A DNA stretch of 64,000 nt, from positions 32,081 to 96,080 of the forward strand of contig JADFDP010000001.1 in NCBI GenBank assembly GCA_018262835.1, read 5' to 3'. Numbering within the stretch: position 1 is the stretch's first letter; every line of letters starts with the position of its first letter. This stretch comes from Candidatus Aminicenantes bacterium. Its GTDB lineage: Bacteria; Acidobacteriota; Aminicenantia; UBA2199. The notes below the pieces were generated by a model. It had not been told where the DNA came from. It searched no databases and worked only from the letters and a program-made list of their open reading frames with translations. Positions 2,801 through 35,801 of the stretch are shown piece after piece. Made by a program: the position numbers and the translations under genes.

Positions 2801-4126
2801 TTAGAGATGACAGTTGAATCCGATCGCGAAGAGATGCTCGCTGCGGGAGGCAAAGCTCATCGCGGTCAGGCCGTTCAGTTCCAAGTCTTCATTTCCGTTT
2901 ATAACATTTCGAGCGGAAACATTCAGGTAGCGGTAAGCGACGGAAACGCTCATTCTCTTGCTGCGCCAGCCCAATCCCGCCGAAAGCCCCCACTGGTCGG
3001 TAAACGGGAATGTGGCCGAAAACTGCTCGTCTTGCACCGGACTGGGCTCTAAAAACACCCCCATCCGTATGCATATTTTTTCGGACGCTTCATATTCAGC
3101 TCCGATCCGCAATGAAACCGGATTTTTCCAGGAGAAATCGCCCTCCACCTCCCGCCAACGGAAAAAAGATTCGATGAGCATGGGCCTCTCAAACTGAATC
3201 GATACTGTATCGAACATCATCCAGAATGGCAGGTAGGCGTCTGCCTCAAGCATGAGGCGTTGACTCGGCTTCCAGGCCAGACCCAACTTGACGGTTGCGA
3301 TGTCACGGATCCGGGCCTCGGCTTTTTGCTCGGGCGAGTCAATGAAGACCAAGTCAAGCGCATGGTTCCACTCTGCGAAGGGGGTATCGGATTCGCGCAC
3401 GATGACCCTACCCGCCGAGTAAACTCCTCCGAAGCTTCCTTCGACCGAAAATCCAAAATCAAGCTTGGAACTCATCTTCCAGCTTGCACCAAACCCAAAC
3501 GAGAGAAACGTTGATCGACAATCCTTCAGGGACAGGATGAAGTCCTGCGCATCCTGAATCAGGCCGTTGGTGAGCTGGACGAGCAACATGTCATGATTGA
3601 AATGACGGACAAACTCTCCCGATGAGAAATTGATGCCCATGCTCGCGCCGATGGAAATACGATCGCTGATCTTGAGTGCGATAGCGGGGGTGAAGGTCTG
3701 GGTTTTGAAATAAAGCTGCCTGGCGTCATAAACCAGGGGATTGAACCGGTCGGTTGGCCAACTGAGCTCGTGCCGGGAAGAAGTGTGCACTCCCAATCCG
3801 GCCCAGAGGAATTTATTGAATTTGTGCGTGAGGGCGAATTCGGGCAGCAAAAATGACGCCTTTTTGGAATCGAACGCCAAACCGTCAAAATCTGTTGTGG
3901 AAAAAGAGTAGGATCGCGAAGTATAAGAGCTTCCCAGTTGCAGCTGGGTTCCTTCGAGCCGGGTGATCGCGGCGGGATTGTAAAAAATGGAAGTAGGGTC
4001 GTGAAAACCAGCCACAAAAGCGCCGGCCAGGGCCGTGGCGCGGGGGCCGATCTCGTAATTCTTGAATCCCGTTCCAAAAAGGGATAATGAAAGAAGGACT
4101 GTGAATGAAATTAAGATTTTTTTCAT
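2801..4126 (-). CDS. OMPP1/FadL/TodX-family outer-membrane transport protein
   Basis: Signal peptide plus the N-terminal motif GPRATALAGAFVAGFHDPTSIFYNPAAI typical of FadL-like channels. ATG 4126 lies 8 nt after GGAGG. The GTG at 4135 from the ORF track lies inside the RBS. Confidence 0.75.
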   Translation of the reverse strand: MKKILISFTVLLSLSLFGTGFKNYEIGPRATALAGAFVAGFHDPTSIFYNPAAITRLEGTQLQLGSSYTSRSYSFSTTDFDGLAFDSKKASFLLPEFALTHKFNKFLWAGLGVHTSSRHELSWPTDRFNPLVYDARQLYFKTQTFTPAIALKISDRISIGASMGINFSSGEFVRHFNHDMLLVQLTNGLIQDAQDFILSLKDCRSTFLSFGFGASWKMSSKLDFGFSVEGSFGGVYSAGRVIVRESDTPFAEWNHALDLVFIDSPEQKAEARIRDIATVKLGLAWKPSQRLMLEADAYLPFWMMFDTVSIQFERPMLIESFFRWREVEGDFSWKNPVSLRIGAEYEASEKICIRMGVFLEPSPVQDEQFSATFPFTDQWGLSAGLGWRSKRMSVSVAYRYLNVSARNVINGNEDLELNGLTAMSFASRSEHLFAIGFNCHL

Positions 4127-4457
4127 CAAGATCACCTCCTTTTTGCTGTGGCCTGTTCCACGGTGAATTTTCTCGTATCCATTAAATTTGGTGCTTGAAT
4201 ATTAATTCCAACACTTTTCGGAAGCGTTTATTCACTTTTTTTAATATTTATTAGAAAAAAATGAACTGGAATTTATCCGGGAGTTGAAGCTGACAAGGAA
4301 AATAATCTGAGCAAGGTTTTATTTGGAAATGATGCCGTGCTGTTTATTATTCAGATTTTGCTCGGTGCAATGGCTCCGATCTTGACAGGATTTTCAGCCA
4401 ATGGCATGAAAACGGGTGTCCATCAGCGAAGCCCCGGCGGGGAAAAATTCCTTTTGC

Positions 4458-5927
4458 TCACTCGCAGTAATACTGGATGACGCGGATGACCGCCTGTTCG
4501 CAGACCTTGCACAACGGCTTGAGGCCGCGGCTGAACATCAGGCAGTCGAGCATGGGCCGGAACAACCCCTTGGCCGCGTAGCCGGCGCCCTCGAAGGCTC
4601 CGACCTTGCCCTGGAAACGGCTCTTTTTGAAAAAAGCGTTCACTTCCAGGCCGTTCAGGCGCGACATCTCATCGCTCTGTGCTTGCAGGGCGTCGATTTC
4701 CGCCTTGGGGGCGTTGGCGCGCTTCAGGGCAGCGATCCTTTCGTTCGTCTCCTGGCGTTTTTTTTGGTAAACCCTTTCCATTTCTTCATATGCCGCTTTT
4801 TCCCACAGGGTGGGCACGGCGGTCTTCTTTGTCACCAGTTCCTTCCATTTCAGGTTTTTGGGGTCGAGCAGGGCGGTGACGTTGGGCTCGAGCGGCTCGA
4901 CTCCGACCGGGTAGAACTCGTTGTAGGCCACGGCCGAGGTGTAATATTCGTCGGCCAGGCCGCTGAACGAATGGCCGAACTCATGCATGCATAGATACTG
5001 CTGCCACTGGTCGTCGCTGGTGAAGGTGCAGTAGAGGTTGTAGATGCCGCCGCCGCCGTAGCGCGTCTGGTTGACCATGATCAGCAAGGCGTCGTAGGGG
5101 ACGTGGGCGGCGATGTCGCGCAGGGCGCGGTTGTCGTCGGTCAGCAGGTAACGCTCCGAGCCGAAGGAATCGAATTGGGCTCCCAGGACCGTGTTCTTGA
5201 ATTGACCGAAGCTGGGCTCGTCGCAGCCGCTTTCCGCTGAAGGCTTGAACAGGCCGGTGATATTGAAACGGTCCCTGTAGGTCTTGTAGGGTTCCTGGCT
5301 GGTAATGAGCTCACTGAAGCGTGCCAGGTCGCGCTTGAATTTTTCCTGCTCGGCCGCGGTATAACCTTCACCAACGATTGCCAGGTCAACCCTGTCGGCC
5401 GGAGCGCCGTTCTTGACCTGTTCGATCACCTGCACGTCGCCGGAGAGCTTCTCCTTGACGATGAACTGGTCGGCGGGATCGATCTCCCGGCCGAACAGGA
5501 GCTGGGGGAGGTTTTGCCGGTCGCGCAGCAGGATCTCCAGGCGGATCTTGTTTTTGGGATAAGGCAGGAGCAGTGTTTCGGAAAACGTTTTGCCGATCCC
5601 GTTCTGACCCGGATCGGTGGTCTTGTATTCGCCGAAATAACTGTCGAAGCCCTTGCTGTAGATCAGGGTGCCGGAAGCGGCATCGCTTATCCGCAGCTGG
5701 TAGCGGCCCAGGGCGAAGGGATCGATGGTGCGGCGCGGGTTGCCGGCCCAGGGGCCTTGCTGGAAAATCCGGTCAATCATGAACGTTTCTTCCTTGGCGT
5801 CGCCGGCGTGGAACATGTCCACGCGCAGGGTCCGATTCTCGAAAAAGGCAGCGAAATCGACATTGTCCGAGGCCTGTCCGGACAGTGAGCAAGCCAGCAA
5901 AAATAAAACCAGGATCGTTGCTTTCAT
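4458..5927 (-). CDS. M64-family (IgA-peptidase-like) zinc metallopeptidase
   Basis: HEFGHSFSGLADEY zinc motif. Signal peptide MKATILVLFLLACSLSG. ATG 5927 lies 7 nt after GGAGG. Confidence 0.8.
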   Translation of the reverse strand: MKATILVLFLLACSLSGQASDNVDFAAFFENRTLRVDMFHAGDAKEETFMIDRIFQQGPWAGNPRRTIDPFALGRYQLRISDAASGTLIYSKGFDSYFGEYKTTDPGQNGIGKTFSETLLLPYPKNKIRLEILLRDRQNLPQLLFGREIDPADQFIVKEKLSGDVQVIEQVKNGAPADRVDLAIVGEGYTAAEQEKFKRDLARFSELITSQEPYKTYRDRFNITGLFKPSAESGCDEPSFGQFKNTVLGAQFDSFGSERYLLTDDNRALRDIAAHVPYDALLIMVNQTRYGGGGIYNLYCTFTSDDQWQQYLCMHEFGHSFSGLADEYYTSAVAYNEFYPVGVEPLEPNVTALLDPKNLKWKELVTKKTAVPTLWEKAAYEEMERVYQKKRQETNERIAALKRANAPKAEIDALQAQSDEMSRLNGLEVNAFFKKSRFQGKVGAFEGAGYAAKGLFRPMLDCLMFSRGLKPLCKVCEQAVIRVIQYYCE

Positions 5928-10676: not shown

Positions 10677-12656
10677 ATGAAGAAACCTTTTGCGCCGCAA
10701 CAAAACTACGAAAAGAGCCGCAAGCGGGTCGGCTATACTCCGCGCAATGAAACCAAGGCCGCAACCTATGCCAGACTGGGATTCAAATGCGGCCTGGAAG
10801 TGCACCAGCAGCTGCAGACCGAAAAAAAGCTGTTTTGCCACTGCCCGGCCGGCAGGTACCACAACCTTGAGGAATACGACGCCGAGATCGTCCGCCACAT
10901 GCGGCCGACCCTTTCCGAGCTGGGCGAATACGACGGCACGGCCCTGATGGAATTCAAGACCCGCAAGATTGTTATCTACCGGATCAAGAACGAGACTACC
11001 TGCACCTATGAAATAGACGACACGCCTCCTTTCCTGGTCAACCGCCAGGCCCTGGAGATCGCCATGGAGGTGGCGCTGCTGCTCAAGTGCAACATCGTCG
11101 GCGAGTTCCACATCACGCGCAAGCAGTACCTGGACGGCAGCATCCCCACCGGTTTTCAGCGCACCGGCATCCTGGGTATCGAAGGGGAGATCCCGCTGTG
11201 TCATAAAAAAATCCGGATCATCCAATTGAGCGTTGAAGAAGATGCCTGCCGGGAAATTTCCGATGTCGGCCACATGCGCATCTATTCCACCGACCGCCTG
11301 GGCATGCCCCTGATCGAGACCGTGACCTACCCCGAAATGCTGACCCCCGCCGAAGCCGCCGAAGCCGCCCAGTATATCCGCTTCCTGGCGCGCAGCACCG
11401 GCAAGGTGCGCACCGGCATCGGCGCCGCCCGCGAGGACGTCAATGTCAGCATCACGGGCGGCACGCGCGTGGAGATCAAGGGGGTGGCCCATATCGCCTG
11501 GATTCCCGAGCTGGTACACAACGAGGCCTTCCGCCAGAAAGCGCTGCTGGAGATCCGCGAGGAACTGCACCGGCGCGTCGGGGACGGCAAGGATTGGAAA
11601 ATTGATTCCAAAGAAGTGGAAGCCGACGTCCTGGGCTGCGATTTCCCCCCCATCCGGGACGCGCGAAAAAAGAAATTGCACCTGCTGGCCGTCAACCTGC
11701 CGGGATTCGGGGGACTCCTCTCCTTTTTCACCCAGCCCGGAAAAATGTTCGCCGACGAGATCGGCGACCGCCTGAAGGTCATCGCTTGCCTGGAGAGGCC
11801 CAACATGGTCCATTGCGAGCAGCCGGAAAAGACGCTGGGCGAGGACGCCTGCCATTGGCTGCGCAAGACTTTAAAAGCGGGTGAAGACGATGCCCAGCTG
11901 TTGTTCTGGGCTGCAGCCGACGACATCAAGACCGCCCTGGAAACCATCGAGGAGCGCTGCCGCCTGGCTTTCCAGGGCGTGCCCAACGAGACGCGGAAAG
12001 GGCTGGCCGACGGCCGCACCATTTTCGAGCGGGTTCTGCCCGGCCCGGACCGTATGTATCCCGACACCGACTCGGCCCCGATCCCGGTCGAGGATGACCT
12101 GATCGAGCGCGTCCGTTCCGGCCTTCCCCCCGAGATCCACTACCGGCTCGGCCAGTTCAAGGCCTGGGGCGTCCCGGAAGACACTTTCGCTTTCCTGCTA
12201 AAATACAACCTGGCTCCCTGGCTCGAAAAGATCAGTAGCGCTTTCGGCGTCGAAGCGCGTTTTGTCTCCGTGGTCCTGGGGCACGTCCTGAAAAATCTGA
12301 TGGGCAGGCAGCAGGGCGGCGCGGGTTTCAATTTCCAGCGGCTCTACGACCTGTTCGGTTTCGTCCGCGAGCAGAAGCTGGACCATGAGATCATCAAGGT
12401 CATGCTGCCGGTGGTGTTCCAGCATCCAAACATGGATTTCGAGTCGGTGCTGACCACGGTAAACTTCAAGCGGCTAGGGCGCGAGGAGATCCTGGCCCCG
12501 CTGCCCATCCTGAAGGAAAAATTCAAGAAGACCGGCACATCCAAGGACCCTGCCGCTGCCACGCGCTGGATTGTAGGCAATTTGCGGAAACTGGCGCTGG
12601 GCAACATGCCCATGCGTGAAGTCACGGCGCAGCTGGCCAAGGGGAAAAAATCATGA
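10677..12656 (+). CDS. gatE: Glu-tRNA(Gln) amidotransferase subunit E (archaeal-type GatE)
   Basis: GatB/E N-terminal motif GLEVHQQLQTEKKLFCHCP. Its 659-aa length with an inserted domain is typical of GatE rather than the ~480-aa GatB. ATGA overlap with the gatD start. Confidence 0.85.
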   Translation: MKKPFAPQQNYEKSRKRVGYTPRNETKAATYARLGFKCGLEVHQQLQTEKKLFCHCPAGRYHNLEEYDAEIVRHMRPTLSELGEYDGTALMEFKTRKIVIYRIKNETTCTYEIDDTPPFLVNRQALEIAMEVALLLKCNIVGEFHITRKQYLDGSIPTGFQRTGILGIEGEIPLCHKKIRIIQLSVEEDACREISDVGHMRIYSTDRLGMPLIETVTYPEMLTPAEAAEAAQYIRFLARSTGKVRTGIGAAREDVNVSITGGTRVEIKGVAHIAWIPELVHNEAFRQKALLEIREELHRRVGDGKDWKIDSKEVEADVLGCDFPPIRDARKKKLHLLAVNLPGFGGLLSFFTQPGKMFADEIGDRLKVIACLERPNMVHCEQPEKTLGEDACHWLRKTLKAGEDDAQLLFWAAADDIKTALETIEERCRLAFQGVPNETRKGLADGRTIFERVLPGPDRMYPDTDSAPIPVEDDLIERVRSGLPPEIHYRLGQFKAWGVPEDTFAFLLKYNLAPWLEKISSAFGVEARFVSVVLGHVLKNLMGRQQGGAGFNFQRLYDLFGFVREQKLDHEIIKVMLPVVFQHPNMDFESVLTTVNFKRLGREEILAPLPILKEKFKKTGTSKDPAAATRWIVGNLRKLALGNMPMREVTAQLAKGKKS

Positions 12657-14035
12657 GCGACCTGTTCAAGGGCTACAAGGGGCCGGCGCTGGAGCTGCTG
12701 AAAAAATTCAACATCCGCGTCTGGAGCGACACCGCGGTCAAGACCACGCGCGGCGATTTCAAGGGCATCGTGCTGCCGCGCTCGGAAAACGACGACGACA
12801 CGCATATCGTGCTCAAGCTGATCACGGGTTACAACGTGGGCATCGCCGTCGAGAGCGTCCTGGACATCCAGGAGTTCGGCTACAAGGAAGCCCATTACAA
12901 GATCCCGGAAAAGCAGTTCCCGTTCTCCAAGGAAAAGAAGAACGTCAAGCTGCTGGGCACGGGCGGGACCATCGCCTCACGCCTCGACTACCGCACCGGC
13001 GCCGTTATCCCCGCCTTCTCGCCCGGCGAGCTCTACGGCGCCGTCCCCGAGCTGGCCGATATCTGCAACCTCGCAACCGAGAAGCTCTTCGCCGTGTTCA
13101 GCGAGAACATGGGCCCCGAGCAGTACAAGGGGTTGGCCAAGGCCATCGGCGAGGAGATCCGCAAGGGCACCGACGGCATCGTCATCGGCCACGGCACCGA
13201 CACCATGCACCACACCGCGGGCATCCTCTCCTTCATGGTGCAGAATTCGCCGGTGCCCATCGTCATGGTCGGCTCGCAGCGCTCCTCGGACCGGCCGTCT
13301 TCGGACGCGGCCCTGAACCTGATGCACGCCACCAAGACCGCCGCCGATTCCGACATCGCCGAGATCATGGTCTGCATGTTCGGCCCCACCTCGGATGAGT
13401 ACGGCCTGCTGCACCGCGGCACGCGCGTGCGCAAGATGCATTCTTCCTACCGCTCCACCTTCCGCACCATCGGCGACATCCCCCTGGCCATGGTCGACCG
13501 CAAGAAGATCACGCCGCTGCGCCAGGACTACAAGCGCCGGCGCAACGACCGCAACGTGGACATCCTGCCGTTCTTCGAGGAGAAGGTGGGGATGCTCTAT
13601 TACTACCCCAACATGCAGCCCGACATGATCGATGCCATGGTCGACCACGGCTACCGGGGGATCGTCATCGCCGGCACCGGGCTGGGCCACGTCAACAAGC
13701 CGCTCTACCCGGCCATCGTGCGCGCGGCGGAAAAGGGCGTGACCATCTATATGACCGTGCAGACGCTCTGGGGCTACGTGCACATGTTCGTCTACGACAC
13801 CGGCCGCGACCTGATGGCCAAGGGCATCATCCCGGCCGAGAACATGCTCCCGGAAGTGGCCTACGTCAAGCTGGCCTGGGCATTAGGCCAAACAACGGAT
13901 CTCGACAAAGTGAAACAATTGATGCTGACCCCCATCGCTGGCGAGATCACCGAGCGCGAGCCTTATAATGGATACTTAATATTCCAGGGCGGCATCCCCG
14001 AGGTCGAAGAGTTTATCCGGAAATTTCACAAGTAA
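12653..14035 (+). CDS. gatD: Glu-tRNA(Gln) amidotransferase subunit D (archaeal-type GatD, asparaginase-like)
   Basis: GatD-specific N-terminal domain (GIVLPRSENDDDTHIVLKLITGYNVGI). Type-I asparaginase motifs follow (LLGTGGTIASRLDYRTG, GHGTDTM). Translationally coupled to gatE. Confidence 0.85.
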   Translation: MSDLFKGYKGPALELLKKFNIRVWSDTAVKTTRGDFKGIVLPRSENDDDTHIVLKLITGYNVGIAVESVLDIQEFGYKEAHYKIPEKQFPFSKEKKNVKLLGTGGTIASRLDYRTGAVIPAFSPGELYGAVPELADICNLATEKLFAVFSENMGPEQYKGLAKAIGEEIRKGTDGIVIGHGTDTMHHTAGILSFMVQNSPVPIVMVGSQRSSDRPSSDAALNLMHATKTAADSDIAEIMVCMFGPTSDEYGLLHRGTRVRKMHSSYRSTFRTIGDIPLAMVDRKKITPLRQDYKRRRNDRNVDILPFFEEKVGMLYYYPNMQPDMIDAMVDHGYRGIVIAGTGLGHVNKPLYPAIVRAAEKGVTIYMTVQTLWGYVHMFVYDTGRDLMAKGIIPAENMLPEVAYVKLAWALGQTTDLDKVKQLMLTPIAGEITEREPYNGYLIFQGGIPEVEEFIRKFHK

Positions 14036-14041
14036 AATCCG

Positions 14042-14102
14042 TCTTCTCCCCTGAACTGTTATTGAGGTTATTATATGGAAGTCGGGAGAAGAAGCTGCTA
14101 AT
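14042..14102. repeat. 9-bp inverted repeat TCTTCTCCC-N43-GGGAGAAGA immediately after the gatD stop
   Basis: Read directly. It sits exactly where G+C content drops, at the left edge of cassette 1. Confidence 0.6.
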
Positions 14103-14198
14103 AAAAATGTAATCGTTGCGTCTCTGATCGACCCCCATTCTCATGCAATAAAATTTAATCTCAGGCGTATAATAATATGGGAAACAGGATAAAAGAAA

Positions 14199-14768
14199 AT
14201 GACGAATGATGAAATAACCGGGTTGGTGAGCGAATGCCTCGCAGGTAAGAAAGAATCTTACGAGCCGATAGCCCGTTATTTCCAGGGGAAAATATACCGC
14301 ATTTGCTACCAAATCCTCGGGACCCCACAAGATGCTGAGGATGCTGCCATGGACGTTTTTATCAAAGCCTATCGATCTTTGACCGGTTACAATTCACAGT
14401 ATACTTTTTCCTCTTGGATATCCAGGATCGCTGTCAACCACTCCATCAGCGTATTTAGACGGAGGAAATTAGAAAATGATTATTTTACTCAACAGGTTTC
14501 AAACCAAGTGCTATCGACAGACAATCAATGCCCGGAGAAAGTTTTTATAAGCGATTGCCGGGAATCAGACCTTTCGGATGCCCTCGAAACCCTATCGGTC
14601 AAATTCCGCACAGCACTGATGCTGAAATACCAGGAAAACCTTTCCTACGATCAAATCGGAAAAATCCTCGATATACCGGTCAATACGGTTGGAAGTTTGA
14701 TCCTGCGAGGCAAAAAGGATTTAAGAAAAAAATTGAGCAATACCCAAACCCTAAACAAGGGGGCGTAA
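14199..14768 (+). CDS. ECF-type RNA polymerase sigma factor
   Basis: Sigma-70 region 2 (YFQGKIYRICYQILGTPQDAEDAAMDVFIKAY). Region 4 HTH (LSYDQIGKILDIPVNTVGSLILRGKKDLR). 189 aa. Confidence 0.85.
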   Translation: MTNDEITGLVSECLAGKKESYEPIARYFQGKIYRICYQILGTPQDAEDAAMDVFIKAYRSLTGYNSQYTFSSWISRIAVNHSISVFRRRKLENDYFTQQVSNQVLSTDNQCPEKVFISDCRESDLSDALETLSVKFRTALMLKYQENLSYDQIGKILDIPVNTVGSLILRGKKDLRKKLSNTQTLNKGA

Positions 14769-14770
14769 AA

Positions 14771-15277
14771 ATGAGTGGAATGTGTTATGATGAAACGCTG
14801 TATGCCGTATTTGTAGATAATGAAGCAGGGCCGGATCAACGGCGCGAAATCAAAACGCACCTCGATACATGTCCGGCATGCCGTGAAATAGTACGCGCGT
14901 TAGAAGCCGAAAATGAACAATTGAAAAAAGCGTTCAAATGGAACCACCCTACACCGGATTTGGTACCGGCCATTATGGAAAAACGGGATTCTGCCGCTTT
15001 TCCCTCAAAACCACAAAAGATAGTAGTCTTAAAACACGGGCAAAGCAACTGGCCGCATGTATTTGAATGGGGCCTGGCAACCGCTGCATCATTTCTGGTC
15101 ATAGGTCTTCTATATCTTTTTTTACTCTCCCCCAACCATACGCCACCTGCCCCCGAAACGCCTGAAAAAAACGTAATACTTTGCTCCGCCAGAGTGGCAG
15201 GAAAAGAAGCCAAAAGCTATATTTATGAAGAAGAAAATCGGGCTACCCAATTCATTTGGTTGGAGAAAGAAAAATGA
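14771..15277 (+). CDS. anti-sigma factor (zf-HC2 type, single-pass membrane)
   Basis: Starts 3 nt after the sigma-gene stop. H-x3-C-x2-C motif HLDTCPACRE. One TM helix (LATAASFLVIGLLYLFLL). Confidence 0.75.
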   Translation: MSGMCYDETLYAVFVDNEAGPDQRREIKTHLDTCPACREIVRALEAENEQLKKAFKWNHPTPDLVPAIMEKRDSAAFPSKPQKIVVLKHGQSNWPHVFEWGLATAASFLVIGLLYLFLLSPNHTPPAPETPEKNVILCSARVAGKEAKSYIYEEENRATQFIWLEKEK

Positions 15278-15324
15278 AAAAAAACTAGCCGAAAAGAACA
15301 CAAAAACATATATGGAGGTAACAA

Positions 15325-16779
15325 ATGAAAAAATGTTTTAAATCTATGATGTGTACGGTGCTTGTCAAACTTGTTTATTTCTCGATTGCCGTCGCAGTAG
15401 CGTTATGGGCATCAACCGATACACTGTTGGCTTCCGACGACATAGTGGTTCAACTCCGTTTCTACCAGGGACTCAATGAAAACGGAAGCAGCTCCGGGGT
15501 CATCGTAAGTTCCTATTACCAGAAAAAAACCTCGGACGATACGGTCTTTTCTTTCGTGGAAATAGACAAGGAAACCCAAAAACTTAAAGAAATCTACAAA
15601 CTAAAAGGTGTTAAACCCATTGGCAATTATGACCTTGTACTGAAAAACAACAAAGCAATAAAAATTTATACTACTATCGAAATGAGTGGAAAGAAATTGG
15701 GTTTCAGGCTGGCCCCTGTGCTCGACCAAAAGGATCGATTCGGGATCAAAATATTCACCGGCGAGGATGAAAAATTGCTCATGGAATCTGATATCGTCAT
15801 CCCAGAGGAGAAAACAGCCGTATTGGGTTTCAAAGATTCCGAAGAGAAAATCTATTTCGTCGCCTTTAACAGGAAAAAAGAATCGGACTTTTCAATTTTA
15901 AATAACTCCAAAACAGTTGAATCGCCAAAACTTATCAATAGAGTCGAACCGACTTACCCCACCGTATTGGCGAAAGAAAAATTGCAGGGCGAAGTCGTAT
16001 TGATCGGCCAAACCGACCTGGAAGGAAAAGTGATCGATGCGCAAGTGCTAAAAGGGCATCCTTTGCTTAATGCAATGACCCTGGCCGCAGTCCGAAAATG
16101 GGTATATACTCCCTGGAAAATCGATGGCATTACAAAGACAGTGGATTTCTCCATGATTTTCATGTACAGGCAAACCAGAAGCACAGGTGAGGCTTTTAAA
16201 AAAGACTGCGATGCGGTTATGAAGAAATATAACTCGTTGTTGAAAGAATACAAGCCCCAAAACGGGATCCCCCGGATAATGGAATTGGTTACGGTGATTG
16301 GCGAGAAAAACCCTCCGGATGCTCCGGATAGTCCAAAAGAGCCCCAAGAACCCACCTTAGCCCAGCAGCTGCATGCACAGACTGTGGAATCCCCGAAATT
16401 GATCCGACGCCCGGAACCCGTCTACCCAGAAAAAGCCCTGCAATCGAAAATACAAGGAAATGTGGTGCTGCAACTGGTGACGGACAACGCCGGGAAAACA
16501 GTAGCAGTAAAAGCACTGAGCGGTCACCCGCAGCTGGTTGAAGCTGCAACCGCAAATATCTTGAAATGGAAATATACCCCGTGGATAATCGATGGCGCGG
16601 TAAAACCGGTGGAAGCCAATATCATAGTGATTTTTCGACTGAAAATAAAAACGGCCGATGAAATCGATGCACAAGTCGATGCGGCTCTAAAAGCCAATGC
16701 GGATGTCCTGGGAAAACGAAAACCCGCCGGGCAAATTCCACGCCTTATGGAAGTCGTCGTCGTTGAAGGCGAAGAATAG
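15325..16779 (+). CDS. secreted/membrane-anchored protein with two tandem TonB C-terminal-like modules
   Basis: N-terminal hydrophobic anchor. Two 131-aa repeats (nt 15913-16305 and 16381-16773). Each begins TVESPKLI(N/R)R.EP.YP, as TonB_C domains do, and each ends IPR(I/L)ME.V.V.GE. Confidence 0.7.
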   Translation: MKKCFKSMMCTVLVKLVYFSIAVAVALWASTDTLLASDDIVVQLRFYQGLNENGSSSGVIVSSYYQKKTSDDTVFSFVEIDKETQKLKEIYKLKGVKPIGNYDLVLKNNKAIKIYTTIEMSGKKLGFRLAPVLDQKDRFGIKIFTGEDEKLLMESDIVIPEEKTAVLGFKDSEEKIYFVAFNRKKESDFSILNNSKTVESPKLINRVEPTYPTVLAKEKLQGEVVLIGQTDLEGKVIDAQVLKGHPLLNAMTLAAVRKWVYTPWKIDGITKTVDFSMIFMYRQTRSTGEAFKKDCDAVMKKYNSLLKEYKPQNGIPRIMELVTVIGEKNPPDAPDSPKEPQEPTLAQQLHAQTVESPKLIRRPEPVYPEKALQSKIQGNVVLQLVTDNAGKTVAVKALSGHPQLVEAATANILKWKYTPWIIDGAVKPVEANIIVIFRLKIKTADEIDAQVDAALKANADVLGKRKPAGQIPRLMEVVVVEGEE

Positions 16780-16844
16780 AATGAATAAATTAATTAGGTT
16801 TGAATAATCAATGCGAAATTAGCTTACCGAAGAAACATCAACCC

Positions 16845-16880
16845 AAAAGCCTCCGGCAAAACCCCGAGGCTTTTTTTTAT
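16845..16880 (+). terminator. rho-independent terminator of the ECF sigma/anti-sigma/TonB-like operon
   Basis: AAAAGCCTCCGG...CCCCGAGGCTTTT hairpin followed by a T8 tract. Confidence 0.7.
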
Positions 16881-16953
16881 TTTTGAATTTCCTCTTTTCT
16901 CCATTGTGTCTGGGGCGGTTGCCGTGTCGTGATGACCCCCAGCGCCCCTCAGC

Positions 16954-17052
16954 GCCGGCGAGATCACCGAGCGTGAGCCCTATAATGGATATTTAATATT
17001 CCAGGGCGGCATCCCAGAGGTCGAAGAGTTCATCCGCAAGTTCCATAAATAG
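16954..17052 (+). pseudogene. detached copy of the last 99 nt of gatD (remnant B)
   Basis: Encodes AGEITEREPYNGYLIFQGGIPEVEEFIRKFHK*, identical in amino acids to gatD 13937-14035. There are 12 nucleotide differences, all silent (including TAA to TAG). In-frame stops lie directly upstream, so it is not part of a gene. Confidence 0.9.
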
Positions 17053-17084
17053 TCATCATTCACGGGTATGGTGACAAGGTATTT

Positions 17085-17351
17085 TCAAGGCTTGCGCTTT
17101 TTCTTTCTTCCACCCGTTCCCGGCGCCGTCCGGCCCGGGCCGAAGTATTTTTCGCTGCGGTAGCGCAGCCAGACCCGCAGCACCTGGGGGACTTTTTCCT
17201 TTTGCTCACTGGAAAGGCTTTCGTAAAGCTTCATGGCCATGTCGCGGTGGGTGCGGCAGGCATGGTTGCGGTGCGCGTCCCAGTAGGAACGGGCCAGCCG
17301 GATCAGGCGGCAGGCTTCCTTGACGGGGTCGGGCAAAACGCTTCGTGACAT
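17085..17351 (-). CDS. small hypothetical protein with basic C-terminal tail
   Basis: 88 aa from the ATG at 17351 (MSRSVLPDPVKEACRLIRLARSYW...GGRKKKRKP). G+C-rich, unlike its flanks. No family recognised. Confidence 0.4.
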   Translation of the reverse strand: MSRSVLPDPVKEACRLIRLARSYWDAHRNHACRTHRDMAMKLYESLSSEQKEKVPQVLRVWLRYRSEKYFGPGRTAPGTGGRKKKRKP

Positions 17352-17428
17352 GGGAGAATGGTAACACATATGGAAGAATTGGGGCCAGGGCCAATGTGGT
17401 GCAAAGAGGGATTTCTGGCGCATGAAGC

Positions 17429-17552
17429 CCTACGTCAAGCTCCCCGGCGTGGAGCACGTCGACGGCACCGCCATCAACATCGAGATCGAGGACTTCATCA
17501 GCTCGGAGGCGGCCAACCCGGGGTCGAGAAGTTCAGCAGAAAGTTTCATAAG
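17429..17552 (+). pseudogene. degraded, frameshifted copy of the gatD 3' region (remnant C)
   Basis: 13-nt identity CCTACGTCAAGCT with gatD 13860-13872. After deletions and a frame change, GGGQPGVEKFSRKFHK matches GatD QGGIPEVEEFIRKFHK. Confidence 0.6.
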
Positions 17553-17622
17553 TCGGGGGAAACAAGAGGTTTGAACGTAATTTTCACGAAGTCAAGCATC
17601 GTTCTCATTCCTTTTTTCGCTA

Positions 17623-17651
17623 TTGCAAATTTAAGAAAAACTTATTAAAAT
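17623..17651 (+). promoter_or_regulatory. sigma-70-type promoter (TTGCAA-N17-TAAAAT) upstream of the PD40-propeller gene
   Basis: TTGCAA at 17623-17628, a 17-nt spacer, then TAAAAT at 17646-17651. Confidence 0.5.
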
Positions 17652-17776
17652 TTTATCATTGAGAAAATCGATTTGCCTATTGGCTTTTCCTAAATATTTT
17701 TCGGCAATCCTTATGGTGGCTGGATGGATGCAATATGCATGAGACGTTTTAACCTAAGAAATAGGGGGTATTCATA

Positions 17777-18787
17777 ATGAAAGGAGTTTTCTTTGTCGTT
17801 TGTGCGCTTGTTTTTTTTACAGCATACTCATTGTCGCAACAAAGCGTTTCCCGGGATCCGGCAGGTCCTTATTTAGGGCAAAAGCCTCCCGGAACAACTG
17901 CGATGATTTTTGCTCCCGGAATTGTTTCAACCGGGCTTGATGAAACGGTCATCACATTCATGCCTGATGGCAAGGAATGCTTTTGGGCCGTATTGCTCGC
18001 TACGGAAATGGAGGCCATTTTAACAAGTAAATTGGTTGACGGCGAATGGACAAAGCCTGAAGTCGCTTCTTTTTCGGGGAGGTATCTTGACGGCTGGCCG
18101 GCCATACAGCCTGACGGAAAAAAAATGTTTTTCCATTCATATAGGCCCATTGAGAACAAAAAAGAACCATCGACTTACATCAATATTTGGTGTGTTGAAA
18201 GAAAGGGAAAAAAGTGGGGTCAACCCAAGCCCTTGGGAGCTCAGGTCAATGGGAATGGGCATTCATGCAACCCTTCGATCGCAAAGAACGGCACGCTTTA
18301 TTTTTCCAAAACCTTTCCTGACGGTTCCGAAAAAATCTGCCGTTCAAGATTTGTCAATGGAAAATATCTGGAATTTGAAAAATTGCCGGAAAATATTAAT
18401 ATCGGCAAAGTCAATTATCACGCCTATATCGCCCCCGATGAAAGTTATCTGATTTATCCCACGGATGCGAAGCCGGATACCATTTGTGGCGGGTGGAATT
18501 ATTATGTTTCCTTCCGCAGCCAAGACGACAAGTGGAGCGATCTTATCCACATCGGGAAATCGGTCAATTCTGAGAGGAGTTCCGACTCTTCTTCCATTTC
18601 TGCCGATGGCAAATACCTTTTCTTTCGAGCCAGCACGAAAACGAATCGGGTTAAAAGTTTGCCTGCTAGGCATTCGTTGAAAAAACTCATTGAAAGAGAG
18701 TATGAAAGGCCCGGGCGGTTCACCGACGATATTTATTGGATTGAGACAAAAGTCATCGAACAGTCAAGGCCTTCTGAGTTTAAATGA
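17777..18787 (+). CDS. secreted WD40-like (PD40/TolB-type) beta-propeller repeat protein
   Basis: Signal peptide present. Recurrent segments of the form 'P..S.DGK.LFF' (MPDGKECFW, IQPDGKKMFFHS, IAKNGTLYFS, IAPDESYLIY, ISADGKYLFFRA). Low G+C. Confidence 0.6.
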   Translation: MKGVFFVVCALVFFTAYSLSQQSVSRDPAGPYLGQKPPGTTAMIFAPGIVSTGLDETVITFMPDGKECFWAVLLATEMEAILTSKLVDGEWTKPEVASFSGRYLDGWPAIQPDGKKMFFHSYRPIENKKEPSTYINIWCVERKGKKWGQPKPLGAQVNGNGHSCNPSIAKNGTLYFSKTFPDGSEKICRSRFVNGKYLEFEKLPENINIGKVNYHAYIAPDESYLIYPTDAKPDTICGGWNYYVSFRSQDDKWSDLIHIGKSVNSERSSDSSSISADGKYLFFRASTKTNRVKSLPARHSLKKLIEREYERPGRFTDDIYWIETKVIEQSRPSEFK

Positions 18788-18788
18788 A

Positions 18789-18854
18789 AACGGATATTTG
18801 ATCTTCCCGGGCGGCGTTCCCGAGGTTGAGAAGCTCATCCGTAAGTTCCACAAG
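18789..18854 (+). pseudogene. detached copy of the gatD 3' end (remnant D)
   Basis: Encodes NGYLIFPGGVPEVEKLIRKFHK, versus GatD NGYLIFQGGIPEVEEFIRKFHK. It starts 2 nt after the propeller-gene stop. The original stop codon is lost. Confidence 0.75.
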
Positions 18855-18971
18855 CAGCCAGTAAGAACCGTCCCCTTTGGCCTTGTGGTTCAATATTTTT
18901 GATCAGTCCCCCGATCCATAAAAAGCAAAATTCGGCTTCCCGCCCGGCGTAGGGTTCCCGGAATGGTTCAG

Positions 18972-19790
18972 CTATTCGGTTATCGTTTCCTCGGCCTCCG
19001 GCGCGGTTTCGGGCTTTTCTTCCCCGGCCGCCTGCGGCTCGACCTTCTCGGCGAACACACCTTTTTCCTTCTTCCAGCGGTCCTCGCAGGTATTGCAGAG
19101 CTCGGAGATGTTCTTCAGCTCGCGGGCTTGGGCCACGGTGCCCTCGAAGATCTCGTCGGTCTTCCTGGTATTGATATGGTAGCAGTCCGAGAACAGGTGG
19201 TAACGCTGGCCTGATTTCGTCCAGAAGACATGGTTCTGTCCGGTCAGCTGTTCGACCTGGGCCGTCTGCTGCGCGTACTGTTCCTGGGAGGGCGGGTTGA
19301 AATCGATGCCCGTGAAGCCGGCGATCAGCAAAGCGATGACCGCGATGGCGCCGACAAGGCCTTTCTGCTTCCCCTTCATATCCTTGTTGGTGAAGATCAG
19401 GATGACCAGGGGCAGGAAGGCGATGACGGCGATGATCGCTCCCAGCTGGTTCTGGACGAAGAACTTGAACGGCTCCTTCTCCGAAGCGGGGTCGAAGCGG
19501 TTGGCCTTCTTCCATAGCAGGTTGCCGATGACCGCGAAGATCAGGTCGGCGACGATCAAGACGATGAGCCAGGTGGTATTGACCGGCACCTTCTTGAGCA
19601 TGAGGATCGCCCCGACCTCGAGGCCGATGGCCGCGATCCAGGAAATGATCGAAAATATGCGGAATTTTTTTGCCTTGGCCTTGCTCTCGTCACTGGCCAC
19701 GAATGGCTTGGTATCTTTGGCTTGAGCGGCCGATGAAGATTCTCCCCCTTCAACCTGGGTCAATTTTTTTTTCGTACCCATGTCTGGCAT
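18972..19790 (-). CDS. membrane protein (about 4 TM) with C-terminal Cys/His-rich module
   Basis: Lys-rich N-terminus MPDMGTKKK. Four hydrophobic helices. C-terminal YHLFSDCYH...CNTCEDRW putative metal-binding motif and an acidic tail. RBS GGAGG. Confidence 0.55.
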   Translation of the reverse strand: MPDMGTKKKLTQVEGGESSSAAQAKDTKPFVASDESKAKAKKFRIFSIISWIAAIGLEVGAILMLKKVPVNTTWLIVLIVADLIFAVIGNLLWKKANRFDPASEKEPFKFFVQNQLGAIIAVIAFLPLVILIFTNKDMKGKQKGLVGAIAVIALLIAGFTGIDFNPPSQEQYAQQTAQVEQLTGQNHVFWTKSGQRYHLFSDCYHINTRKTDEIFEGTVAQARELKNISELCNTCEDRWKKEKGVFAEKVEPQAAGEEKPETAPEAEETITE

Positions 19791-19864
19791 TTCGTTACCT
19801 CCTGTTCAATCTGTCGCATATTGTATAACAAATATTAAATAATGGAAATTCCTTGCGCCGATCC

Positions 19865-20398
19865 TCACGGACCGCCGCGGCTGAAGGCGAAAAGGCCGAG
19901 GCCGGCCAGGATGGCGACGACGAAGCCGGCGCCCATCACGCTCACGACATTCGAGCTCTGCGCGAAGAAGAGCAGGAAGACAACCAGCGGCAGCAGGCCG
20001 GTGATCTTGCCGATCAAGATCGCGTAGCTGCCGCGCAGGGCGAGCAGGATGACGGCAAAACAGCCCACGGGGATCAGGGCAATGAAAAGCCGCGCCAGCG
20101 CCAGCGTCGCGCCGGCGCCGTAGCGCATGCTCGAGACTCCTGCCCCTTGGAACAATCCCAGGAGCTGGACCGCCGACAGCGAAAAGATCAGTATCGTGAA
20201 CCAGGGCAGGAAGAGGGAGACGAGCAGCACCAGCGCGCAGAGGACGGCGGGCTGTTTCAGCGCCTCAAGCCCGGGCGAGTCGTCGACGCGCGCCGCTCCC
20301 GGACGGTGAATGAAGTAGCGGCCGCAATTGCGGCACTCCCGGGCGTCGATCGGGTTCAATTCCCGACAATGAACGCATACCTTGCCGTCGCTGGCCAT
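19865..20398 (-). CDS. zinc-ribbon plus multi-pass membrane protein
   Basis: ATG 20398 lies 5 nt after GGGAGG. CVHC...CRNC ribbon followed by about 5 hydrophobic helices. Confidence 0.5.
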   Translation of the reverse strand: MASDGKVCVHCRELNPIDARECRNCGRYFIHRPGAARVDDSPGLEALKQPAVLCALVLLVSLFLPWFTILIFSLSAVQLLGLFQGAGVSSMRYGAGATLALARLFIALIPVGCFAVILLALRGSYAILIGKITGLLPLVVFLLFFAQSSNVVSVMGAGFVVAILAGLGLFAFSRGGP

Positions 20399-20617
20399 GG
20401 GATACCTCCCGGAGGAATTTTTCCATTCCCGCACCTGCCAAGAGTAGCAGACCGCAAAAAGGAATACAAGTTGCTCCAGTCCGGGAAGGGGACCGGACGG
20501 CGTCTCTTGCTTTCTTTCAGGAGGTGATGCGCTTTTGCACCCAGATCATGTCGCCGGGTTCTTCTTTCTTATTGCTTATATCGTCCGGCCCGGAATGGGA
20601 GCCGCGGAACGGATCGG

Positions 20618-20901: not shown

Positions 20902-21360
20902 CTACAACGCGAATCCGATGGTGAAGCCGAAGGAAATGTCCTTGAACATCTCGTCGAAAAATGTCAGCATGTAGGCGCCGAGGCGATACTTGCTGGCGCG
21001 GATCCCGACCTGGAGCTTCATTTCCAGGGGGATGGTGACGTCCGTGGATTTCAGCCAGATCTCCTTGATGATGCCGGCACCGAGGAAGAGCTGTCCGGTC
21101 GCGAAATTAAGGGTGCCTCCGGGGGCGATGAGCAGCGAATCGGTCGTGAATTTGCTGTCGGTGTACAGCGTGCACTCCGGGCTGACCAGGATGAAATCGC
21201 CGACAAAAAAGGCAAGGGTAACGTTCCCCGAAAAGACCAGGGGGTCGAACTTGAAGTCATTGCGGGTGAGTATGCCGACATTGGCGCTCACGTCGATGCT
21301 TTGGGCCGGGACCAGGCCGGCGCATGCGATGGCGATGAGGAAATAAATTGTTTTTTTCAT
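20902..21360 (-). CDS. small outer-membrane beta-barrel-like protein
   Basis: 152 aa from ATG 21360, with AGGAGG upstream. Signal peptide MKKTIYFLIAIACAGLVPAQS. Alternating strands, ends ...FGFTIGFAL. Confidence 0.5.
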   Translation of the reverse strand: MKKTIYFLIAIACAGLVPAQSIDVSANVGILTRNDFKFDPLVFSGNVTLAFFVGDFILVSPECTLYTDSKFTTDSLLIAPGGTLNFATGQLFLGAGIIKEIWLKSTDVTIPLEMKLQVGIRASKYRLGAYMLTFFDEMFKDISFGFTIGFAL

Positions 21361-21460
21361 GCGCCCTCCTGAGTGCAGTGAATCGTAAACGAAAAAAAAT
21401 AAAATATCAAGTCCCAGAGACCCGGACCGCGGCTCTGCTGGGAGTTGACAGCCCGGACCG

Positions 21461-23271: not shown

Positions 23272-24180
23272 ATGATGAACTTCATTGGCGAGATCGCGGC
23301 GTTGCTCACTTCGGTTTGCTGGGCGTTCAACTCGGTGGTCTTTACCCGGGCCGGGAAGCGGGTGGGGGCGGTCACCGTCAACTATATGCGCTTGTGGATC
23401 GCGGTCCCGGCCCTGCTCCTGATCCACTGGCTGCTTTTCACCACCCCGTTCCCTTTTGCCATCGAGCCGCGCCGCTTTCTTTACCTGGGGGTTTCGGGCC
23501 TGATCGGGTTCGTCATCGGCGACGGCATGCTTTTTGAATCCTTCCTGCTGATCGGTCCCCGCCTGGCCATGCTATTGGCGCTGCTCGTTCCGGTCTGCAG
23601 CACCCTGCTGGCCTGGGTGTTCCTGGGAGAGAAATTGCTGGTCCTGGAGATCGCCAGCATGCTCGTGACCATCGGCGGCATTGCCTGGGTGGTGGCGGAG
23701 AAGACGGTTCCCGGCGACATGCCGATTTCCGGGAAGCCGCGGAAATATTGCCTGGGGATCCTGTTGGCCGTGGGCGGAGCCGCGGGCCAGGCGACAGGTC
23801 TTCTGTTCTCAAAGCTGGGATTGGCGGGCGGCTATTCCGCTGTTTCCGCCACCCTCGTCCGCGTCAGCGTCTCCGCCCTGGCCCTGGCGGCCCTCGGTCT
23901 CTTCCAGGGAAAAATCCATGCCCATCTGGCCAAAATGAAGGATAAAAAAGCGCTGCTGGAGATCGCCGCCGGAGCGTTGACCGGGCCGGCGTTGGGGGTC
24001 GTTCTGTCATTGGTGGCCATCGCCCACGCCCATATCGGCGTCGCCTCCACCCTGATGTCTCTCACCCCGGTGATTTTGCTGCCAGTGTCCCATATTCTTT
24101 TCAAGGAAAGGATCACTTCCCGGGCGATCGTCGGTACGCTGGTCGCCCTGCTCGGGGTGGTCATGCTCTTCCTGATCTGA
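23272..24180 (+). CDS. EamA/DMT-superfamily transporter
   Basis: 302 aa with ten hydrophobic helices in a two-fold EamA-like arrangement. Confidence 0.75.
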   Translation: MMNFIGEIAALLTSVCWAFNSVVFTRAGKRVGAVTVNYMRLWIAVPALLLIHWLLFTTPFPFAIEPRRFLYLGVSGLIGFVIGDGMLFESFLLIGPRLAMLLALLVPVCSTLLAWVFLGEKLLVLEIASMLVTIGGIAWVVAEKTVPGDMPISGKPRKYCLGILLAVGGAAGQATGLLFSKLGLAGGYSAVSATLVRVSVSALALAALGLFQGKIHAHLAKMKDKKALLEIAAGALTGPALGVVLSLVAIAHAHIGVASTLMSLTPVILLPVSHILFKERITSRAIVGTLVALLGVVMLFLI

Positions 24181-24299
24181 CGCTCCTCTCGTGCCGGAAA
24201 AGGCTGCCGCCGGATGGCGGATCAGGGCAGGAAAGGGAATTATCCATGAGATTTCCCGGGACATTTTCTATTTTAAAGACAGGAAACAAGGAGGAAACT

Positions 24300-32301: not shown

Positions 32302-32302
32302 G

Positions 32303-32470
32303 GTGGCCATCGCCCATGCCCATATCGGCGTCGCTTCGACGCTGATGTCGCTCACCCCCGTGCTGCTGCTGCCGGTGTCTTATTTCCTCTTTAAAGAAAA
32401 AATCACTGCCCGGGCAATGATTGGAACAGTGGCTGCCTTGTTGGGGGTTATCCTGCTCTTCTTGATTTGA
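32303..32470 (+). pseudogene. detached copy of the last 168 nt of the EamA/DMT transporter gene
   Basis: Encodes VAIAHAHIGVASTLMSLTPVLLLPVSYFLFKEKITARAMIGTVAALLGVILLFLI*. The gene at 24013-24180 encodes VAIAHAHIGVASTLMSLTPVILLPVSHILFKERITSRAIVGTLVALLGVVMLFLI*. Same orientation and same length. Confidence 0.85.
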
Positions 32471-32531
32471 TTCGCCGCTCTCGCAAAGGAAGAATGGTAG
32501 CGGGAGCGTGAATACAATTCACGGCCATTGG

Positions 32532-34477: not shown

Positions 34478-34754
34478 GTTGACCTCCTGCTCCTGGCCAT
34501 TCATGTTCGCTGCCAAATCCCCGCCGCCCGAATGCAAATGCCGCGGATCGGCGATATCTATTGATATTTAAGCGACCGGCCGTTTATTTCCCTTTGCAGC
34601 AAAGTAAATGAATGTTTACGTAGTACGACCATGATGTAAACAAAAGTAAGCAGAACGCGACGGGTCCGAGGCAGGAAAACCCTTTGGCTGCGCCGTCCTT
34701 GCGCAGCAGCCTGGTTTGGCAAGGAACATGAATTACGGATATCAGGAGGAAAAA

Positions 34755-35117
34755 ATGAACAAAGGCTTCACCTTGATCGAAACGTTGGTTTCCCTATCCC
34801 TGCTGCTGCTGGCGGTCCTGTTCAGCGCCCGGGTCACGGTTTTCGCCCTGGCGCAAGCGCGAAATTCGCTGCTGCGTTTCCGCCTGATGGAAAAACTGGA
34901 TTATTACAAGAACTATCTGTCTTCCCTGTCCATGGCGGCGCCCGAACTCGCGGCGGGCGACCACCGACAGGAGAGCGGGGAATTCAGGATCAGCTGGCGG
35001 GTGGCGACGGCCGGGGCGTTTTTGAAGCGAATCGATCTGCTGGCAGCGGCGCCGGCCTGTTCCCTGCCGCAGGTTTTTTACAAGTCAAAATTTATCCAGG
35101 AGGCCCAAGATGATTAA
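34755..35117 (+). CDS. prepilin-type N-terminal cleavage/methylation protein (GspI-like minor pseudopilin)
   Basis: MNKGFTLIETLVSLSLLLLAV class-III signal. ATG 34755 follows AGGAGG. Confidence 0.7.
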   Translation: MNKGFTLIETLVSLSLLLLAVLFSARVTVFALAQARNSLLRFRLMEKLDYYKNYLSSLSMAAPELAAGDHRQESGEFRISWRVATAGAFLKRIDLLAAAPACSLPQVFYKSKFIQEAQDD

Positions 35118-35799: not shown

Positions 35800-35801
35800 C
35801 C

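Follow-up and report, generated by a model that had tools for sequence, protein, structure and literature searches.

A stretch of 64,000 nt from a Candidatus Aminicenantes bacterium (contig JADFDP010000001.1, positions 32,081 to 96,080; hereafter the window, numbered from its first nucleotide) contains the essential housekeeping gene gatD and, downstream of it, three further copies of its 3' end, separated by other genes. We propose, with a probability of roughly 0.6, that the gatD end is a recombination hotspot, at which gene blocks stack by 3'-end displacement, i.e. through a homologous crossover on one side and an illegitimate join on the other. Ordinary recombination, rather than a dedicated mobile-element enzyme, is most likely at work. 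Extra gatD ends occur in 12 of approximately 23 loci of the related clade, the window included, and in none of approximately 135 loci from other phyla. The gene, its partner gatE and the four copies of the gatD end are as follows.

10677-12656: gatE (Pfam)
12653-14035, plus strand: gatD, the functional gene, 460 aa (Pfam GatD_N, Asparaginase and Asparaginase_C), with its last part imported
13929-14035, plus strand: copy 1, the replacement end that came with unit 1, within the donor-derived tract of gatD
16946-17052, plus strand: copy 2, the displaced original gatD end, frame intact, TAG stop
17507-17553, plus strand: copy 3, an old remnant of the final 47 nt of gatD (nhmmer and tblastn)
18787-18855, plus strand: copy 4, an old displaced gatD end, stop mutated to CAG

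Repeats in the window were sought by blastn and tblastn with the gatD 3' end as query, and by self-blastn of the whole window. For comparison, 160 gatD loci were taken from genomes and metagenomes, with flanks of up to 10 kb each (referred to by L numbers where they need to be told apart). An nhmmer DNA profile was built from the last 332 nt of gatD in relatives, and left boundaries of the copies are quoted as profile positions of 332. Two metagenomic contigs close to the window, L162 and L164, stem from JGI samples 3300027841 and 3300027719, respectively. The GatD protein of the window is 91-98% identical to those of Aminicenantes metagenome-assembled genomes (MAGs), and an exact look-up of the window GatD and TonB_C proteins returned no identical sequence on record.

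All detached gatD ends lie downstream of gatD and in direct orientation, which is the layout that 3'-end displacement leaves behind. Copy 2 (16946-17051) and gatD 13929-14034 share 87.7% identity over 106 nt (blastn E 1.5e-33) and encode the same 32 aa, and copies 1 and 2 are separated by 11 differences in 32 codons and one in the stop codon, every one of them synonymous (dN/dS ~0; neutral P = 2.9e-8). The first-pass annotation of this DNA had reported a 99-nt gatD end recurring at 16954-17052 with 12 silent differences and the same 32 aa, and had taken the silent excess to mean that the ends evolved as coding ends elsewhere; the formal test bears out both statements. It had also described a remnant with a lost stop at 18789-18854, and this is copy 4, which aligns at 77% over 66 nt (E 4e-9), with 22 aa at 82% identity, the stop changed from TAG to CAG, and four replacement changes as reported, next to 10-11 synonymous changes rather than nine. 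Copy 3 is found by tblastn at 17508-17552 over 15 residues (E 0.002), at the protein level only. The nhmmer profile returns the same three sites, with E values of 1e-30 for copy 2, 3.4e-13 for copy 4 and 7e-4 for copy 3. Tandem duplication followed by divergence in place was considered and ruled out, because the copies differ almost only at synonymous sites; the pattern supports replacement gatD ends that would have evolved as real coding ends in another lineage. Separately, we noticed that the codons for YNGYLIF at 13967-13990 are AT-rich (TATAATGGATAYTTAATATTC, which includes a perfect TATAAT) in a gene that has approximately 93% G+C at third codon positions (GC3). This run is present in many, not all, lineages and copies of the gatD end, and may reflect a constraint at the nucleotide level, e.g. 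a promoter for downstream genes.

The most direct view of a single event comes from unit 1, the block next to gatD, and from a near-identical strain that lacks it. The parts of unit 1 and its borders are listed here.

13882-14035, plus strand: donor-derived tract of gatD, its start possibly as early as approximately 13849
14036-16945, plus strand: unit 1, a recent insertion of approximately 43% G+C (Pfam), missing from L164
14144-16878: promoter-to-terminator core of unit 1
14199-14768: ECF sigma (Pfam)
14771-15277: zf-HC2 anti-sigma (Pfam)
15325-16779: double TonB_C protein (Pfam)
approximately 16846-16880: hairpin followed by a T-run
16929-16953, plus strand: right-hand junction scar, read against L164 and L015

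The contig L164 is 99.6% identical to window 16946-17882, and leftward it reads on as an intact gatD end, for at least 198 nt, in place of unit 1; it thus presents the unit-1-free site in a near-identical strain. Because gatD of L164 runs intact into the small gene that in the window follows copy 2, unit 1 must have been inserted recently, with copy 2 as the original end that it displaced, which sets the polarity of the event. Neither L164 nor any of the 160 related loci contains unit 1. When the window gatD is compared with the native gatD of L164, 12 mismatches fall within 13849-13928, upstream of the repeat, against 99.6% identity elsewhere. Because of these mismatches the imported tract must start inside gatD, upstream of the duplication, and because they lie upstream of the repeat L164 is not a deletion product of the window arrangement. 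The foreign sequence begins at least 47 nt upstream of the repeat. Over the final 180 nt of gatD, GC3 drops from 95-100% to 65-70%, and mismatches to L102 rise at 13850 from approximately 3 to 10-12 per 60 nt; both comparisons point to a break near 13850-13880. The low GC3 of the last 180 nt was rejected as stand-alone proof of import, the insert-free L015 having an equal drop, and a breakpoint map based on 5' versus 3' gatD identity between species was dropped, since the incongruence was weak and all relatives are approximately 10% diverged. Unit 1, then, does not have a fixed crossover core at the repeat edge with native sequence upstream of it; its donor tract reaches into the anchor gene upstream of the duplicated segment, a feature seen for unit 1 only. 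In this event a short native stretch was swapped for a foreign gatD end plus unit 1, with the right join inside the native gatD end. Compared with native gatD, the scar at that join lacks 3 nt, has G in place of T at one site and repeats 10 nt in tandem (CCTCAGCGCC). The core of unit 1 is 84% identical to L165 206-2941, exactly from promoter to terminator, while both L165 flanks are unrelated, a context unconnected with gatD; between the two, the terminator hairpin shows compensatory changes.

What follows copy 2 was there before unit 1 arrived. The first-pass annotation had divided the region into three foreign cassettes, the second of which ('unit 2') is a single gene.

17085-17351, minus strand: small basic protein, 88 aa, start at 17351, a conserved neighbour of gatD

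This gene lies downstream of gatD in L001, L003, L005-L009, L012, L015, L017, L081 and L092 (77-88% protein identity), and it is conserved beside gatD in every close relative with enough flank; in L015 and L092 gatD directly abuts it. The stretch made up of copy 2, the hairpin behind it and the small gene aligns collinearly with L015 (389 nt, 89%) and with L092 (425 nt, 87%), where the gatD end is the functional one, and the copy 2 region does so with L164 (99.6%). The collinearity with L015 and L092 shows that the small gene is native and that copy 2 is the original gatD end, pushed off by unit 1. The gene is thus a conserved native neighbour rather than a cassette, and the count of three foreign cassettes does not hold. 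The mosaic composition described earlier stands for units 1 and 3, which have 38-49% G+C compared with 59-67% in gatD; it does not extend to unit 2, which at 57-60%, and not the approximately 65% given before, is of native composition. The 88-aa protein had no match in Pfam, NCBIfam or PHROGs. A gatD end lies on one side of the small gene and an old gatD remnant, seen in L007 and L092 too, on the other, and the gene may have arrived long ago by the same route.

To the right of the small gene, older layers can be distinguished.

17418-17506, plus strand: fragment of an unrelated gene end (...KPYVKLPGVEHVDGTAINIEIEDFISS...), not gatD, with homologues in L008 and L009
17554-18786, plus strand: unit 3, a PD40 beta-propeller gene (17777-18787; Pfam PD40) with its upstream region, approximately 44% G+C
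18972-19790, minus strand: conserved native gene, 272 aa, which closes the variable region

A longer, decayed gatD copy had been placed at 17429-17552. Only its right-hand part, 17507-17553, proved to derive from gatD (copy 3), whereas 17418-17506 is an unrelated gene end, 83.5% identical to L008 13763-13877, where it forms the C-terminus of an open reading frame (ORF); in both L008 and L009 its homologues sit to the right of the small gene, and in L009 it is contiguous with that gene. The 13-nt match at 17429-17441 that had been assigned to the copy is at chance level (E 0.56). Remnants of 27-30 nt equivalent to copy 3 stand at the same spot, just upstream of the start of the small gene, in L007 and L092. 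Unit 3 is present in the unit-1-free L164 and absent from other relatives, and on this evidence it is older than unit 1. Copy 4 and the second copy of L081 have both undergone the TAG-to-CAG change and both precede the same downstream gene, which suggests that copy 4 is orthologous to the L081 copy and truncated in the window. The 272-aa gene that follows is 71-85% identical in protein in L001, L003, L005, L006, L008, L009, L015, L017 and L081.

Displaced ends recur in the clade: besides the window, they are found in L002/L102, L003, L085, L007 (three copies), L009, L017, L081, L083/84, L086 and L092 (two copies). On the right, all of them end at the stop codon, whereas the left boundary varies from approximately 30 to approximately 296 nt, at profile positions 37, 46-59, 83, 132, 141, 199, 214-227, 263, 282-285 and 302. 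One copy began even further upstream, since L083 retains a gatE fragment fused to a gatD fragment and its displaced copy must once have started inside gatE. All copies retain the last 27-47 nt of gatD, and five events share one boundary zone, while the other events do not. Functional and displaced ends diverge under coding constraint in four relatives as well, with dN/dS of 0.08-0.19. The cargo of these blocks in relatives includes a BglII endonuclease with an MT-A70 methylase (lying in L086 between two gatD ends), an AbiEi antitoxin, a CopG-like antitoxin, an AAA_14/DUF4143 ATPase, CAAX proteases, an M10 peptidase, and an operon of ornithine cyclodeaminase, aminotransferase, permease and S9 peptidase. 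In L017 the ATPase cassette opens the array and in L007 it takes second place, with an identical right-hand junction sequence and different neighbors, and because this junction is shared, whole cassettes with a trailing gatD fragment move between backgrounds. Within one genome, copies show alternating identical and divergent blocks, the pattern that gene conversion produces. The expectation that cassettes would be variably present with breakpoints at the repeats is thereby realized (L164 lacks unit 1, and gatD abuts the small gene in L015 and L092), and the strain pair together with the 12 clade loci upholds the earlier description of the locus as a footprint of repeated insertion at the gatD 3' end, in which the incomer supplies a new end. 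In L007 we also noted a perfect 118-nt non-coding direct repeat inside the gatD array (13929-14046 and 18962-19079), which could be a small repeat element or a feature of the assembly.

The same footprint is seen at other genes. Self-blastn of the window returned exactly two long direct repeats, one at gatD and the other at an EamA transporter gene.

24012-24191, plus strand: 3' end of the EamA transporter gene (23272-24180), first repeat copy (Pfam EamA; self-blastn)
32302-32483, plus strand: displaced EamA gene end, 56 codons, in frame, stop at the same position, 8.1 kb downstream

The EamA copies, which comprise roughly the final 170 nt of the gene, are 77.5% identical over 182 nt (E 7.6e-34), and in a MAFFT alignment the similarity fades within approximately 10 nt past the stop codon. 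Between them lie six genes of native composition, including an SSF symporter and a DUF294/Cache/CBS protein. In L086, the 3' end of uvrC (18902-20539, Pfam) is repeated approximately 880 nt downstream, at 21214-21380 (79% over 168 nt), and the locus stops inside the copy. The gene-end footprint is thus not specific to gatD. A strict automatic scan for other gene-end repeats found mainly gatD cases and missed EamA and uvrC, and it gives no reliable genome-wide rate.

At the loci with extra copies, no recombinase that could have mediated these insertions was detected. No integrase, transposase or excisionase domain was detected (Pfam) in the 50 window proteins, in line with the first-pass annotation, or in approximately 30 proteins encoded by the cassettes of relatives; IntE, PinE and XisE of Escherichia coli e14, used as phmmer seeds, gave no match in 6334 ORFs of at least 100 aa (160 loci plus the window), a search of limited sensitivity for distant recombinases. 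The gatD ends are absent from viral contigs (IMG/VR; DNA-pattern and peptide searches), no tRNA lies near the insertion site, and an autonomous integrase-bearing element at the same site was found neither in the 160 gatD loci with their flanks nor in viral contigs, a search that did not extend to whole genomes. The repeats fold no better than shuffled sequence (z-scores of -1.2 to +1.2), with no attC-like hairpin or dyad, as had also been stated before; with neither an integrase nor an attC-like fold, the locus does not have the organization of an integron, i.e. intI beside attI with attC-ended cassettes. It does consist of integrase-free units between direct repeats, the form of a cis-mobilizable element (CIME) or satellite, and the repeats are of variable length with no mobility gene in or beside the insert. 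The earlier idea of site-specific insertion, in contrast, is not sustained: boundaries range from approximately 30 to 296 nt with one inside gatE, the import starts upstream of the repeat, and EamA and uvrC carry the same footprint.

The position of the exchanged tract, upstream of the duplicated segment, fits one-sided homologous recombination and not an integrase acting at a fixed core. In the sequence of events that we propose, DNA of a related Aminicenantes lineage would enter the cell, bearing its gatD end and downstream genes. The left crossover would be ordinary homologous recombination within the strongly conserved gatD, and the right join would be illegitimate, by homology-facilitated illegitimate recombination, which has been proposed to displace 3' ends at Rhs loci and in the immunity arrays of the Vibrio cholerae type VI secretion system (T6SS) (PMC5361080). 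If the block is already trailed by a partial gatD copy, the right join may instead be homologous with the resident gatD end. With this join inside the resident gatD 3' end, the imported end would complete the gene and the resident end would be left downstream as a fragment; repeated rounds would stack blocks, the newest adjoining gatD. The detached ends would then serve as portable homology, through which blocks could move between species, be lost, or undergo gene conversion by homologous recombination. We infer both the enzymology, i.e. RecA-type recombination plus end joining, and the route of DNA entry.

A number of points weigh against this proposal. In laboratory experiments, homology-facilitated illegitimate recombination is less frequent than homologous recombination by orders of magnitude (PMC5361080), and since illegitimate joins are rare and scars are present in half of the lineages, a high flux of DNA or selection is implied. 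The donor arrangement of unit 1, a gatD end followed by the operon, was not found among the loci compared, the L165 operon standing in another context. Unit 3 and a 6.4-kb block in L092, both beyond the small native gene, break the order in which the newest block stands next to gatD, and would call for internal copies to have recombined secondarily, or for old events with subsequent loss. Five apparently independent left boundaries fall within approximately 30 nt (profile positions 199-227, near the codons for LMLTPIAGE), a clustering that is not obviously expected from a purely illegitimate join. Finally, HUH-type transposase genes, the only mobility-related genes at this position, come right after gatD in three loci of different lineages, all of them without additional gatD ends. 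In L082 a truncated IS91 Zn-domain ORF (2943-3242) lies 28 nt beyond gatD, together with a Y1_Tnp gene (4031-4828), and Y1_Tnp homologues (IS200-like) lie just downstream of gatD in L010 (11439-11882) and L046 (11697-12020). As a separate observation, the window contains a cluster of pseudopilin-like genes at 34716-37563, the first with an N-terminal methylation motif (Pfam) and the others with N-termini that look similar by eye, which could encode a type IV pilus, a type II secretion or a competence apparatus.

The shared boundary zone, the cassettes at internal array positions and the transposase genes beside gatD would all suit a gatD 3' end that acts as the attachment site of integrase-less cassettes served by an unlinked recombinase (tyrosine, serine or HUH), or a set of decayed tandem islands that no longer have their integrases, as would the direct repeats with modular cargo, which resemble tandem accretion, and the restriction of extra ends to one clade. 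We nonetheless regard such a system as doubtful, given that neither the 64 kb nor any locus with extra copies yielded a recombinase, that no gatD-end fragment turned up in viral contigs, and that the repeats are without hairpin or dyad; a site-specific enzyme is also hard to reconcile with boundaries spread over 30-296 nt and in one case lying in gatE, with an exchange at unit 1 that starts at least 47 nt upstream of the repeat, and with footprints at EamA and uvrC, which would demand additional site specificities. Quite improbable, in our judgment, is the integron-like variant, in which 'gatD end plus cargo' cassettes, interchangeable among array positions and among species, would be joined at a preferred junction near codons 420-429 by an unlinked or unknown enzyme, possibly an HUH Y1/Y2 transposase of the sort found next to gatD in L082, L010 and L046.

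Insertion at internal copies, the shuffling of cassettes (exemplified by the ATPase cassette of L007 and L017) and the mosaic of identical and divergent blocks within one genome would be accounted for by circles, each of one end plus cargo, that loop out between two gatD-end repeats and integrate by a single RecA-mediated, Campbell-type crossover. As the primary route this is unlikely: circles could not make the first duplication, they would have to be transferred between species, and for unit 1 they predict native sequence upstream of the repeat, where L164 shows otherwise. Circle integration probably contributes as a secondary rather than a primary process. An assembly artefact that joined strain variants at a conserved gene end might be suspected, the source being a metagenome in which several related strains co-occur (L082 and L162, for instance, come from one sample), and is scarcely credible. 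L162, an independent assembly, reproduces the 6.5-kb structure (window 13322-19848) at 99.8% and gap-free; the copies differ by 12-23%, so that an assembly graph would keep them apart; copy 2 begins abruptly after non-gatD sequence; and displaced copies are present in 12 assemblies from different groups and assemblers. One of the loci concerned, L009, is a Microflora Danica MAG, from a series that we believe to be long-read based.

Displacement of gene ends followed by stacking has several known parallels, none of which matches gatD in full. At icd of E. coli, e14 and phage 21 behave like copies 1 and 2, in that the element brings a replacement end and the original persists beyond it as the pseudogene icdC; by our measurement, the icd end and icdC differ at 12 nt and 2 aa over 165 nt. 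Unit 1, too, lies between target 3'-end repeats (copies 1 and 2), one of which completes the gene, but no integrase was detected beside an attachment site, and intE and xisE, the one fixed 165-nt boundary and the crossover at the repeat edge that mark e14 have no counterpart at gatD. Integrase-less tandem units bounded by gene 3'-end or tRNA-end repeats are known from ICESt1 and CIMEs at the fda 3' end and from tycheposon arrays, and gatD resembles them in this respect; those arrays, however, rely on an integrase-bearing relative with the same att core, and neither was found in the 160 loci or IMG/VR. Around ISCR1 in complex class 1 integrons, variable partial duplications of a conserved segment flank captured genes, through circles and homologous recombination. 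Each ISCR1 region holds an ISCR transposase, whereas at gatD loci only L082 has the truncated IS91 Zn-domain ORF, without an extra gatD copy. In Rhs, contact-dependent inhibition (CDI) and V. cholerae T6SS arrays (PMC5361080; Jackson 2009 cited there), as at gatD, old 3' ends pile up downstream in direct orientation, there is no integrase, and the newest unit adjoins the conserved part. In those arrays the incoming end encodes a different toxin and diversity is selected, whereas at gatD, a housekeeping gene, the incoming end is synonymous and the payload consists of unrelated downstream genes. Insertion with duplication of a long target segment of variable length and without mobility genes is documented for restriction-modification systems (PMC2853133), where direct target repeats of 30 to >400 bp occur, some of them at gene 3' ends (Nobusato 2000 cited there), much as at gatD; the BglII and MT-A70 cassette of L086 has exactly this form. 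Those insertions occurred singly, at scattered sites, and have near-identical repeats, unlike the events that we describe, which recur at a single gene end across many species, form arrays and have silently diverged copies; the gatD copies differ by silent changes because one copy was imported.

The gatD/gatE pair is usually regarded as archaeal. We found it in MAGs with the labels of a wide range of bacterial taxa, Aminicenantes, Zixibacteria, Ignavibacteria and Cloacimonadota among them, as well as in the cultured Clostridium rhizosphaerae and Oceanirhabdus, with GatD approximately 80% identical, a distribution that suggests recent horizontal spread of gatD/gatE.

Taken together, what we describe is a known kind of process, new in that it affects a housekeeping gene in an uncultured phylum, and with an unusually clear before-and-after strain pair. 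For genome annotation there is a warning, in that short orphan ORFs which duplicate a gene end are insertion scars rather than genes, and an island that lacks an integrase is not necessarily a decayed prophage. Public metagenomes allow a direct test of the process, through the silent-site divergence of the displaced ends and the two strains of which one has unit 1 and the other lacks it. For the organisms themselves, the locus documents, in nature, how accessory genes, among them defense systems, transporters, regulators and metabolic operons, are gained in an uncultured phylum without mobile-element enzymes. The conserved housekeeping gene would provide the homology anchor, each gain would leave a datable fossil gene end, and these fossil ends would in turn become homology arms, making the cargo transferable between species.

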